A DNA stretch of 64,000 bases from an uncultured Clostridiaceae bacterium (GTDB taxonomy: Bacteria > Bacillota > Clostridia > Lachnospirales > Lachnospiraceae). The DNA lies in assembly GCA_937890595.1 (NCBI GenBank), contig CALADM010000014.1:15082-79081 (forward strand), written 5' to 3'. The first letter of the stretch is position 1. The number at the start of each line of letters is the position of its first letter. The notes under the pieces were generated by a model that was given only the letters and a program-made list of their open reading frames with translations, did no database searches and was not told the DNA's origin. Made by a program: the position numbers and the translations under genes. Positions 32,203 to 37,140 of this stretch are shown here, one piece after another.

Positions 32203-32246
32203 TAAAAAAATGGCTTCCCCATATATTAGTCATATGGGGAAGCCAT
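32203..32246 (-). terminator. Rho-independent terminator ending the pfl-ferredoxin operon
   Basis: 14-bp stem TGGCTTCCCCATAT / ATATGGGGAAGCCA followed by a run of 7 U on the minus strand. Confidence 0.85.
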
Positions 32247-32262
32247 TATGCAACTGTCAGAA

Positions 32263-32433
32263 TTATTCCTGCTCAATAGAACCTGTTGGGCAAGTAGCTG
32301 CACAAGAACCGCACTCGATGCAAGTATCAGCGTCGATCACATATTTGCCGTCTCCCTCAGAGATAGCGCCAACTGGACATCCATCAGCACAAGCGCCGCA
32401 GGATACACATCCATCATTAATTACGTATGCCAT
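32263..32433 (-). CDS. 2x[4Fe-4S] clostridial-type ferredoxin (56 aa; not in the supplied ORF track)
   Basis: My translation: MAYVINDGCVSCGACADGCPVGAISEGDGKYVIDADTCIECGSCAATCPTGSIEQE. It has two CxxCxxCxxxCP motifs and an SD AAGGAGG upstream. Confidence 0.88.
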   Translation of the reverse strand: MAYVINDGCVSCGACADGCPVGAISEGDGKYVIDADTCIECGSCAATCPTGSIEQE

Positions 32434-33285: not shown

Positions 33286-33366
33286 GATGTTGATCGCTCC
33301 TTTGCTTTGATCAGATCGACCCAGTTAGGCTCGATTCTGTCTATAATAGTAGAATAAATAGTTTAA

Positions 33367-33391
33367 GTGCCTGACAAGGAATGTCAGGCAC
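33367..33391 (-). terminator. Hairpin between the glycyl-radical module gene and pflA (partial terminator or processing site)
   Basis: Perfect 10-bp stem GTGCCTGACA / TGTCAGGCAC with a 5-nt loop. Only a weak T-rich tract follows on the minus strand. Confidence 0.5.
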
Positions 33392-33493
33392 TATGGGGAA
33401 TTGCACTGCAGCGGTGAAAAAGATGCTGTCAAGATCAGCCCGTTGCAGGCATCAAGATTGTCCTTCAGGAAAGATTTCCTGTCAGCTCAAATT

Positions 33494-33736
33494 TTACAGA
33501 TTGTTGTGGAAAGTTCTGGAGATAACTTCATCCTGCTGCTCTTTTGTCAGTTTGATGAAGTTTACAGCGTAACCAGAAACACGAACGGTCAGCTGAGGAT
33601 ATTTCTCAGGATGTGCCTGTGCATCCAGAAGAGTTTCCTTTGTAAATACATTGACATTTAAGTGATGTCCGCCTTTTTCTGCATATCCGTCTAACAAGGA
33701 TACCAGGTTATCAATTTGATTTTCGCTAATAGACAT
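33494..33736 (-). CDS. Stand-alone glycyl-radical domain protein (GrcA/YfiD-like), corresponding to the missing C-terminus of the upstream pflB
   Basis: [17 protein letters not shown]...[35 protein letters not shown] carries the RVSGYAV glycyl-radical fingerprint. Own ATG with SD AAAGGAGG. Confidence 0.88.
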
Positions 33737-33754
33737 AATAAAGCCCTCCTTTAG

Positions 33755-34021
33755 TTAATCTTCGTGATGGTTATAATTGTAATCATCGTGCTGTTCTTCT
33801 GTATCTTCTGAAAGATCCATACCCTCAAAGAGAGTAGGAACTTTACATGCCATATCTCCGGCAGCACATTCCAGAGAATTGGTTGTCTGTACAGTCTTTT
33901 CGGCAGTAACTGTGCCGGAAGCATCGACTTGTATATTCATATGTCCGCCGTTGTTTGACATAAACTGATCAATCATGGCGACAATGTCATCAATTTTTTC
34001 TTCTTTGTTTTTATCTCCCAT
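33755..34021 (-). CDS. 88-aa hypothetical protein; the N-terminus is a paralog of the first part of the glycyl-radical module and the C-terminus is unrelated, Cys-containing and acidic
   Basis: The ATG at 34021 lies 8 nt after AAAGGAG. KIDDIVAMIDQFMSNNGGHMNIQV resembles [24 protein letters not shown], and shared DNA strings include AAATTGAT-AC and GGCGGACAT. There is no RVSGY motif. Confidence 0.6.
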   Translation of the reverse strand: MGDKNKEEKIDDIVAMIDQFMSNNGGHMNIQVDASGTVTAEKTVQTTNSLECAAGDMACKVPTLFEGMDLSEDTEEQHDDYNYNHHED

Positions 34022-34095
34022 ACGGCAGACTCCTTTCAGCGTCATTGACAAAGATACAAGGGGATCATTTAGATCCTGTTTTGTTTATATAGTTA

Positions 34096-36156
34096 TTATT
34101 TGTCGTTGTTGCTAAGATCCAGATCTAAGTCTACATCAAGATCTCCTGCAAATACTACATCATCTTTTCCAAGTGCGTTCGGGATGATGGAGAAAGTATT
34201 GGAGATACCATCCTGTGCGTCACGGAATGGCAGCTTGGAAACAGAAGATAAGGATGCAACTGCACCATGGCTGTCACGTCTGTGCATTGGGTTTGCACCT
34301 GGAGCGAATGGCTCGCCTGCTTTTCTTCCGTCTGGTGTAGAACCTGTATTCTTACCATATACAACGTTGGATGTGATGGTAAGGATAGAAGTAGTAGGTC
34401 TGCCGCCACGGTATGTGTGGTTTCCTCTTACATAGTTCATGAATGTGTGAACCAGCTCAGAAGCGATCTGATCTACACGGTCATCATCGTTTCCGTATTT
34501 CGGGAAATCACCTTCTACTTCGTAGTCTACAACGATACCGTTTTCATCACGGACTGTCTTAACCTTTGCGTATTTGATAGCAGACAGGGAGTCAGCTACT
34601 ACGGAAAGACCTGCAATACCGGTTGCGAACCAACGTGTGATCTCTTTGTCATGAAGAGCCATCTGGATTCTCTCATAGCAGTATTTGTCATGCATATAGT
34701 GGATGATGTTCAATGTGTTTACATAAACACGAGCCAGCCACTGCATCATATCTTTGTACTTATCCATTACTTCATCATAATCAAGATACTCAGAAGTGAT
34801 CGGACGGTACTTAGGACCAACCTGTTTCTTTGTGATCTCATCTACACCACCATTGATTGCGTAAAGGAGACATTTTGCAAGGTTTGCACGAGCGCCGAAG
34901 AACTGCATTTCTTTACCAAGTCTCATGGAAGATACACAGCATGCGATCGCATAGTCATCGCCATGTGTTACACGCATTAAGTCATCATTCTCGTACTGAA
35001 CGGAAGAGGACTCGATGGAAGTCTTAGCACAGAAACGTTTGAAGTTTTCCGGAAGTCTTGTGGACCAAAGAACAGTCAGGTTTGGCTCTGGAGCAGTTCC
35101 AAGGTTGGACAGTGTGTGCAGGTAACGGAAGGACATCTTTGTTACCATGTGACGACCGTCAATGCCGACACCACCGATAGACTCTGTAACCCAAGTTGGG
35201 TCTCCGGAGAACAGTGCATTGTATTCTGGAGTACGAGCAAATTTTACAAGTCTCAGCTTCATGATGAAGTGGTCTACGAACTCCTGGATCTGCTCCTCTG
35301 TAAATGTTCCGTTCTTTAAGTCACGCTCAGCATAGATGTCGATAAATGTGGAAGTACGTCCAAGGGACATTGCAGCACCATTCTGCTCTTTTACAGCTGC
35401 AAGGTATCCAAAATATGTCCACTGGATTGCTTCTTTTACGTTCTCAGCAGGTCTTCCGATATCATAACCGTAGATCTCACCCAGTTTCTTCAGTTCCTGA
35501 AGTGCGCGGATCTGCTCAGATAACTCTTCACGGTTTCTGATAACATCAGAATACATGATTGTACGAGTTGTATTCTTCTGCTCTGTCTTATCTTCGATCA
35601 GACGGTCAACACCGTACAGTGCGACACGACGGTAGTCGCCGATGATACGTCCACGACCATATGCATCCGGAAGTCCAGTGATGATGTGGCTGGAACGGCA
35701 AGCACGCATTTCTGGAGTATATGCATCAAATACACCAGCGTTGTGTGTCTTTCTATGAGTAGTGAAAAATTCAACGATCTCTGGGTCTACTTCATATCCG
35801 TTATCCTGACAAGCTTTTACTGCCATACGGATACCGCCATAAGGCTGCAGGGAACGCTTGAATGGTTTATCAGTCTGGAAACCAACGATGGTCTCTTTGT
35901 CTTTGTTTAAATAACCCGGTCCATGGGAAGTGATCGTGGAGATCACCTTGGTATCCATATCAAGGACGCCGCCTTTTTCACGCTCCTGTTTGGATAACTC
36001 CAGTACCTGGTTCCATAAATCTGTTGTATTCTGTGTGGGACCGACAAGGAAAGTGTCATCTCCGTCATATGGGGTATAGTTCTTCTGAATGAAGTCACGA
36101 ACATTGATTTCGCGCTCCCATACGCCGCCTTTAAAATTTGTCCATTCTGGTCTCAT
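34096..36156 (-). CDS. pflB: Formate C-acetyltransferase (pyruvate formate-lyase) core lacking the glycyl-radical domain
   Basis: The ATG at 36156 follows AGGAGGAGG. It is PFL-like throughout, including the catalytic CC ([10 protein letters not shown]). Homology ends at [14 protein letters not shown], then comes an unrelated tail [20 protein letters not shown] and TAATAA. Confidence 0.9.
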
Positions 36157-36220: not shown

Positions 36221-36249
36221 ATTATAATTGGATATTGTATACACGTCAA
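36221..36249 (-). promoter_or_regulatory. Candidate sigma-A promoter of pflB
   Basis: On the minus strand: TTGACG, 17-nt spacer, TATAAT. The -35 overlaps one arm of the inverted repeat GTCAAGAA-N17-TTCTTGAC (36245-36277). Confidence 0.6.
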
Positions 36250-36471
36250 GAAGGTCTGACGAAAATTTTTTCTTGACTGATTATCTGTATTATAATAGAA
36301 TATTTCCATCAAGTCTGTTAGATATACAACAAAAAAGAAGAAAAATTGTTTTTTTTAATATACAAAAAGGAACAATATAGAGAATAGTACAGATTTTTTG
36401 CTTTCTGATTGGACTTTTTGTGTTATAAGTTTCGGTTGGAAGGCTCTTTAAGGAAGAGGGAAAGAGAAAAA

Positions 36472-37140
36472 ATGAGAGATTATTTACTTCAGTTGAGAAA
36501 TTCACCTATTTTTACAGGAATGCAGGAAGAGGAGATATTACATACATTAGAATGTCAAAGACCTCAGATATTAAAATATGAGAAGGGGGACTACATTTTC
36601 AGGGAGGGTGAGAAATTACAAAAGTTTGGTCTGATCCTTTTGGGAAGTGTATATATTGTAAAGGAAGATATCTGGGGAAACCGTACCATTTTGGCAAAGA
36701 TGGAGGAGGGACAGCCTTTTGGTGAAAGTTTTGCTTTTATGAATAAAGAGACATTATCTTTTGGAGTGATCGCTTCTGAGAAAACGGTTGTCGCATTTTT
36801 GAATGTAAAGAATATTTTGGGGGTTTGTTCCAAGGCATGTTTCAGCCATACACAGTTGATCCACAATCTGCTCCAAGTGATGGCAGAGGCAAATCAGGTA
36901 TTGATGAAGAAGATTGAACATACCTCCCAAAAGACAACAAGGAATAAATTGCTTTCGTATCTGTCTGATGAGTCAAAACGGCAGAAGAGCCTCAAGTTTG
37001 AGATCCCATTTAACAGACAGCAGCTTGCAGAATATCTGAATGTGGACAGGAGTGCAATGTCAGTGGAACTGAGTAAATTGCGTGATGAGGGAATTCTGAA
37101 ATTTGAGCGTAATTCTTTTACTATTTTGGATACCTTATAG
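36472..37140 (+). CDS. Crp/Fnr family transcriptional regulator
   Basis: cNMP-binding-like beta-roll N-domain and a C-terminal HTH (RQQLAEYLNVDRSAMSVELSKLRDEGIL). It lies divergent from pflB. Confidence 0.85.
   Translation: MRDYLLQLRNSPIFTGMQEEEILHTLECQRPQILKYEKGDYIFREGEKLQKFGLILLGSVYIVKEDIWGNRTILAKMEEGQPFGESFAFMNKETLSFGVIASEKTVVAFLNVKNILGVCSKACFSHTQLIHNLLQVMAEANQVLMKKIEHTSQKTTRNKLLSYLSDESKRQKSLKFEIPFNRQQLAEYLNVDRSAMSVELSKLRDEGILKFERNSFTILDTL

Follow-up and report, generated by a model that had tools for sequence, protein, structure and literature searches.

A pyruvate formate-lyase divided between a catalytic core and a separately encoded glycyl-radical module in an uncultured Clostridiaceae bacterium

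We analysed a 64,000-nucleotide stretch of DNA (the window) from an uncultured Clostridiaceae bacterium of the gut (assembly GCA_937890595.1, contig CALADM010000014.1, positions 15,082 to 79,081 of the forward strand), in which a compact minus-strand operon at 32.2-36.25 kb encodes a pyruvate formate-lyase (PFL) in separate pieces. One gene specifies a catalytic core without the radical glycine and another a stand-alone glycyl-radical module of 80 residues. Very probably the two make up a functional PFL that arose by gene fission, in which the module would be docked non-covalently on the core and activated by the PFL-activating enzyme PflA, with a third, cysteine-containing element alongside.

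Division of the enzyme between core and radical module

The point at which the enzyme is cut was located by alignment to the E. coli PFL (1H16), in which residues 4-670 of the core correspond to residues 10-682 and residues 8-78 of the module to residues 682-757. The core reads ...NALGKDD at the equivalent of E. coli residue ~679 (the matching E. coli segment ends at chain residue 678), and is followed by a 20-residue tail and the double stop TAATAA. The Pfam domain Gly_radical is split in two, with positions 1-49 of 106 on the core and 51-106 on the module. Against the PFL equivalog model TIGR01255 the core scored 1105.2 bits, above the cut-off of 994.2, over profile positions 2-665 of 744 only, and the module matched positions 664-744. 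The core also matched the Pfam PFL-like model over its full length. Both the core end with its double stop and a separately encoded radical-glycine module some 360 bp downstream, with its own ATG and a strong Shine-Dalgarno sequence, had been proposed in an initial annotation of the window made from the letters alone; the former is borne out by the E. coli alignment and the ends of the open reading frames (ORFs), and the latter was found across a gap of 359 nt, inside which lies a further ORF of 88 codons (the mid ORF).

The residues expected of a PFL active site are present, distributed over two polypeptides. The catalytic cysteine pair is found at core residues 406-407 within IACCVSS (C418/C419 in E. 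coli) and is invariant in split and unsplit relatives. The RVSGYAV radical loop is not on the core polypeptide; it is encoded on the separate 80-residue ORF, where the radical glycine is Gly55 (RVSG55YAV), and this motif is invariant throughout the module family. Most of the split cores examined carry, after ALGKxx, the segment xVFxGD[IL][DE][VI][DE]LD, with variants, and the acidic tail of the window's core aligns with the linker EEQGFLGEPEID of an unsplit relative, the protein P0251.

Among curated families, the module belongs with GrcA3 (NF038360), scoring 170.2 bits against a cut-off of 158 over positions 2-78 of the 78-position model, and its close homologues carry the name GrcA3 in RefSeq. 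It remained under the cut-offs of GrcA/YfiD (TIGR04365, 93.1 bits vs. 170) and GrcA2 (NF008341, 104.5 bits vs. 145). It differs from the E. coli GrcA in being only 80 residues long and in lacking the N-terminal region of ~60 residues, such that only module residues 21-79 could be aligned, to GrcA 68-126, and in having a helix equivalent to PFL residues 682-692.

Conservation of the split arrangement and selection on its parts

An early stop codon in an enzyme of normally ~750 residues is the usual signature of decay, and the pieces could in principle be the remains of a recently broken pflB, either a pseudogene or a sequencing or assembly artefact. Yet 24 contigs from independent assemblies, polished long-read contigs of 1.06 and 1.74 Mb among them, show the five genes in an identical layout and with identical proteins, and all five genes, the mid ORF included, are predicted by gene callers in those assemblies; the proteins of the operon are also recorded on a 5.13-Mb NCBI contig. 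Each piece has its own Shine-Dalgarno sequence and start codon, the core ends in a double stop, and a conserved extra gene occupies the gap.

For the comparative set one genome per species was scanned, which gave at least 597 matches, and the best 80 of those loci were analysed. Seventy-six are split, with a stand-alone module right after a core without radical domain, one is fused and three are interrupted where a contig ends. Split operons occur, among others, in the complete genomes of Sellimonas caecigallum JCM 35759 and Ruminococcus callidus ATCC 27760 and in metagenome-assembled genomes (MAGs) labelled Dorea, Blautia, Ruminococcus flavefaciens, Oscillospiraceae, Acutalibacteraceae and others. 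The layout in oral Lachnospiraceae consists of a 695-residue core, an 80-residue module and an activase. Stand-alone modules of 80-81 residues amount to at least 8000 proteins, with single sequences present on about 900 to more than 1000 contigs.

Pairwise ratios of nonsynonymous to synonymous substitution rates (dN/dS) lay between 0.04 and 0.06 for core and module, and between 0.16 and 0.26 for the mid ORF; judged by these ratios, core and module are under strong purifying selection. An unsplit PFL from Lachnospiraceae (P0251, 751 residues) shares 81% identity with the core over residues 1-680 and 88% with the module over residues 676-751. As this protein is collinear with both, the core and module of the window are the products of a clean gene fission. 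The maintenance of the split across families, together with the low dN/dS and the independent assemblies, effectively refutes decay or artefact as an explanation, and we give it practically no weight.

A third way of accounting for the two pieces is stop-codon readthrough or recoding, by which they would be rejoined into a single-chain PFL. Among 46 relatives without a mid ORF, 12 do have the module in the frame of the core with the core stop codon alone between them. The distribution over the three frames is 15:19:12, as by chance, and 35 of the 46 stops are TAA; in the window, a double stop, the long gap and a separate intervening ORF stand between the pieces. Programmed readthrough was rejected because the frames are random and the stops mostly TAA, and recoding of any kind is scarcely credible here. 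The initial annotation had taken the locus for a working multi-part PFL rather than a decaying one. Conservation, dN/dS, the collinear unsplit homologue and the intact expression signals support that view. Assembly error, which it had asked to have excluded, does not agree with the same layout in independent assemblies, long-read ones among them, and the division into core and module, for which it had asked about conservation in related Clostridia, proved to be conserved across many species and families.

Several further occurrences were recorded. The single fused locus among the best 80 comes from a Treponemataceae MAG. The Treponemataceae PFLs (locus L056:3895-6222 (+); proteins P0191-P0194) are single-chain enzymes in which a cysteine-rich linker, such as NCMSCDTATIMAAP, joins the core to a GrcA3-like radical domain, and P0194 ends in ...RTFHDGLGCSSC instead; by appearance these proteins are re-fusions of the split form or intermediates of it. 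Split PFL operons were also seen in MAGs labelled Bacteroidaceae, Slackia, Melainabacteria, Spirochaetales and Erysipelotrichaceae (L085, L089, L091, L072 and L031), which reflects either horizontal transfer or binning error. In two Lachnospiraceae loci (L025 and L041), a gene for a second, distant PFL-like glycyl radical enzyme, about 25-38% identical to the core, is located a few kb downstream of the split operon.

Proposed assembly of the split enzyme and possible role of the two-cysteine motif

The module resembles GrcA/YfiD, which acts on E. coli PflB, and Y06I of phage T4, small stand-alone RVSGYAV proteins that are homologous to the PFL C-terminus, are activated by PflA and provide the radical in trans to a PFL body whose own radical loop does not work. 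The E. coli GrcA repairs a full-length, oxygen-cleaved PflB in an emergency, whereas the core adjacent to the module here never has the radical loop. The name of the NCBI family, 'autonomous glycyl radical cofactor GrcA3' (model rad_fix_GrcA3), likewise implies a spare part, but in 76 of 77 loci the partner PFL is without a radical domain. If the module were nevertheless a spare part of the GrcA type, its real client would be a full-length PflB encoded elsewhere, which would do the work, and the truncated core would be a relic or have another role. A second pflB is possible elsewhere in the ~5.1-Mb genome, of which the window only was covered; within these 64 kb there is no intact pflB. The truncated core, however, is under selection as strong as that on the module (dN/dS ~0.05), retains the catalytic cysteine pair and exceeds the PFL equivalog cut-off. 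The module adjoins it across short gaps in 76 of the 77 loci in which the core end can be read. The module, moreover, shares 88% identity with the C-terminal end of the nearest unsplit PFL, lies below the GrcA and GrcA2 cut-offs, and is devoid of the GrcA N-terminal region, which is important for radical installation in E. coli. We therefore find a role as a spare part quite improbable, and the context argues for the GrcA3 module being a subunit, obligate rather than spare. The earlier suggestion that nothing else would supply the radical domain is true of the adjacent core by construction and, as regards an intact pflB, of the window.

In the mechanism that we propose, the core provides the barrel, the substrate site and Cys406/Cys407, while the last strand, the glycine loop and the final helix are missing from it. 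The module, equivalent to residues ~680-759 of E. coli PFL, would contribute a helix, the tenth barrel strand (GGHHLNVNV), the glycine finger and the last helix; docked non-covalently, it would complete the ten-stranded barrel and set Gly55 beside the cysteine pair. PflA, probably reduced by the ferredoxin of the operon, would abstract the Gly55 hydrogen and so install the radical. Oxygen cuts glycyl radical enzymes at the radical glycine, and damage here would accordingly cost only the 80-residue subunit. A fresh copy of the module could replace the damaged one while the large core is kept, so that the oxygen-labile part may be exchangeable by design, as the initial annotation had reasonably suggested.

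A comparable division has been engineered. In the PFL(1-695) plus YfiD(61-127) pair of Andorfer et al. 2021 (PMC8683613), a PFL without radical domain is complemented by a minimal module, the cut lies within ~15 residues of the natural one, and the pair has wild-type activity once activated. That pair is artificial and shows poor binding and radical installation, whereas the natural split PFL has in addition a conserved acidic tail, a cysteine motif and the mid protein, which may compensate. The solved sequences closest to the core are two chains named 'Formate acetyltransferase' (PDB 38lb and 38la; 1177 and 1157 bits). These are different proteins from another organism; 38la ends in ...SLGKE, exactly at the split point, and the radical module matched neither chain nor any other distinct chain assigned to the two entries. 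Since both are absent from a Foldseek copy of the PDB ending 2026-04-08, they were released later, and such recent entries indicate that a split PFL system is probably already under study. No paper was found for them, nor was any on GrcA3 or a split PFL found in the searchable literature, and a June 2026 review of glycyl radical enzymes treats spare-part proteins only (PMC13450708). The remark in the initial annotation that no split PFL was known to it needs to be narrowed in this light: no paper in the searchable literature contradicts it, but the module is curated by NCBI as GrcA3 and the PDB holds related cores without a radical domain. The split PFL is a conserved three-part variant of the PFL/GrcA theme that is known to databases as annotation.

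The third part is the product of the mid ORF, previously noted simply as a further ORF in between. Its position and Shine-Dalgarno sequence were correctly described, but its importance was understated, as it belongs to a conserved family and its N-terminal half duplicates that of the module. One database gave 70 homologous clusters (49-99% identity), and a second one contains 191 clusters formed at 50% identity; the members are small, annotated as hypothetical and without a Pfam domain. They share the consensus IDDIVAMLDQFMSxNGGHMNIxV ... NSLDCAxGDMACKVPTLFEG and an acidic tail after it, with D18, F20, G25, G26, H27, N29, C59, P62, T63, L64 and G67 invariant and C52 nearly so. Comparison of the N-terminal half (a helix and the strand GGHMNIQV) with the module family by hhalign gave 95.3% probability (E 2.3e-8, 35 columns), and a weak N-terminal match to GrcA3 was the only one obtained for the mid protein in Pfam and NCBIfam. 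The C-terminal half carries the two-cysteine motif and the acidic tail. By its sequence conservation, the mid ORF is a conserved third component and not incidental.

Relatives that have no mid ORF carry a like motif at the end of the core's own tail, e.g. ...CGSGACNAPTLFEGLD, with the variants CCEPN, GACCQPTE and GCCE. Altogether 75 of the 76 split loci have the motif (C...AC..P[TN]), 46 of them at the core tail and 29 in the mid ORF. Most unsplit relatives are without the motif, a few having cysteine-rich linkers or ends; it therefore tracks the split state. Close relatives of the window (88-91% core identity) include both placements, and the motif thus appears to move between core tail and mid ORF by small rearrangements.

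Large catalytic subunits co-encoded with small cysteine-containing ones are also known from benzylsuccinate synthase (BSS) alpha-beta-gamma and 4-hydroxyphenylacetate decarboxylase HpdBC. In those enzymes the large subunit retains the radical glycine and the small ones bind [4Fe-4S] clusters via four or more cysteines, whereas here it is the small subunit that has the radical glycine, and only two cysteines are conserved in the accessory element. With just C52 and C59, the mid family falls short of the four-cysteine pattern of BSS beta/gamma and HpdC.

We infer that the cysteine-motif element helps the core to hold, recruit or exchange the detachable module. By analogy with E. coli, one possibility is that the mid protein stands in for the strand and loop stub which GrcA/YfiD needs for binding there. 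More broadly, and as a tentative proposal that we would not yet favour over doubt, split PFLs might be three-component enzymes in need of a hitherto unrecognised cysteine-motif element, present either as the core tail or as a protein of ~70-90 residues derived from partial duplication of the module. Such an element might take charge of the removable radical subunit: it could hold the strand slot while this is empty, recruit the module for its activation or quench the radical safely with its thiol pair. If this is true, the oxygen-labile cofactor would be a serviced, exchangeable part, and glycyl radical enzymes would have a new class of accessory subunit.

The mid protein could also act in the opposite sense, as an inhibitor or decoy. 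In that case a dead copy of the module would compete for the module slot or for PflA and keep the enzyme switched off, giving no aid to assembly. Homology of its N-terminal half to the helix and barrel strand of the module would allow competition for one site, and it has no glycine at the would-be position of the radical loop. It is encoded, though, in the same operon, upstream of the module, and is co-transcribed with it, and 46 loci have the motif fused to the core without any copy of helix and strand, which is easier to reconcile with a constitutive structural or tethering role than with a titratable inhibitor. An inhibitory function seems unlikely to us.

Several observations count against an assembled enzyme of core, module and cysteine element. 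Predicted structures were of low confidence and were set aside (pLDDT 56 for the fused P0194, with an alignment of fused PFLs, cores and modules; pLDDT 57 for the mid protein with 68 homologues), so that the docking of the module is read from homology only. The C-terminal half of the mid protein has no homology to the glycine loop or to any known family that Pfam, hhalign or profile searches could detect; no split-specific conserved Cys or His was found on the core as a metal-binding partner for the cysteine motif; and one split locus (L036) is without the motif altogether. In E. coli, removal of PFL residues 696-733, termed the recognition element by the authors, weakens YfiD binding and radical installation (PMC8683613), and because of this the natural split would need some compensation.

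Operon organisation, neighbouring genes and significance

The features of the operon and its surroundings are listed in Table 1. The order of core, 88-codon ORF, 80-residue ORF, pflA, ferredoxin and terminator behind a promoter, as well as the intactness of the expression signals, had been described beforehand, and all of these elements were recovered on the minus strand. Every ORF of the operon has its own Shine-Dalgarno sequence and ATG; the module ORF is preceded by AAAGGAGGG and the mid ORF by GAAAGGAG.

Table 1. Positions of the PFL operon elements and neighbouring features within the window
Feature	Position	Strand	Remarks
Sigma-70-like promoter, TTGACG-17-TATAAT	36221..36249	-	Upstream of the core gene; 11/12 consensus matches, top site in the scanned region; consensus match only
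PFL catalytic core, 686 aa	34096..36156	-	Without the radical-glycine half of the Gly-radical domain
Catalytic Cys406-Cys407 codons of the core	34936..34941	-	
Acidic C-terminal tail of the core, residues 667-686	34099..34158	-	Followed by TAATAA
Mid protein, 88 aa	33755..34021	-	Between core and module
Two-cysteine motif of the mid protein, C52...AC59KVPTLFEG67	33821..33868	-	
Stand-alone glycyl-radical module, 80 aa	33494..33736	-	GrcA3 family
Radical glycine Gly55 codon of the module	33572..33574	-	
Stable 11-bp hairpin, then U-rich stretch	33366..33392	-	In the 208-nt spacer between module and pflA
PflA, PFL-activating enzyme, 254 aa	32521..33285	-	Radical SAM; TIGR02493, Radical_SAM, Fer4_12
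Ferredoxin, 56 aa, 2x[4Fe-4S]	32263..32433	-	NF058577, 91.7 bits, cut-off 65
Intrinsic terminator, 17-bp stem and T run	32209..32247	-	End of operon
Crp/Fnr-family regulator	36409..37140	+	Divergent from the PFL promoter; equivalent gene has cNMP_binding and HTH_Crp_2
DUF1858 ORF, 66 aa	37296..37496	+	Downstream of the Crp/Fnr-family regulator
Purine riboswitch aptamer, RF00167	37719..37814	+	53 bits, gathering score 37

The dedicated radical-SAM activase PflA scored 296.8 bits against TIGR02493 (cut-off 231.75), and its gene comes next after the module in nearly all related loci. A ferredoxin gene directly follows pflA in 10 of the 80 related loci, and the operon's ferredoxin is the likely electron donor to PflA. 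The spacer between module and pflA is strongly folded (minimum free energy -63.7 kcal/mol, z = -3.85 vs. shuffles), with its hairpin retained in the centroid structure; this hairpin may attenuate transcription, lowering the activase relative to the structural parts, or stabilise the transcript. The divergently encoded Crp/Fnr-family regulator is a candidate anaerobic regulator of the PFL operon, although it does not adjoin the operon in the 80 related genome loci. Beyond it lie the DUF1858 ORF and the purine riboswitch aptamer, the latter upstream of a gene set for an amidohydrolase, a xanthine/uracil permease and a xanthine-dehydrogenase-like protein.

Many anaerobes of the gut, rumen and mouth convert pyruvate to acetyl-CoA and formate mainly through PFL, and the split form is present in Lachnospiraceae, Oscillospiraceae/Ruminococcus and related groups, including named isolates. 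The split PFL also offers a natural template for the engineering of repairable glycyl radical enzymes. If the radical domain is a separate subunit, annotation should be amended: 'GrcA3' would denote an essential subunit and not a spare part, a 'formate C-acetyltransferase' of roughly 690 residues would be no truncated pseudogene, and the un-annotated small protein with the cysteine motif would count as part of the system. The presentation of the buried glycine loop to the activase, a long-standing question, would be directly testable on a domain that nature has already detached. Oxygen damage would then cost the cell 80 residues instead of about 750, which bears on how strict anaerobes survive transient oxygen.

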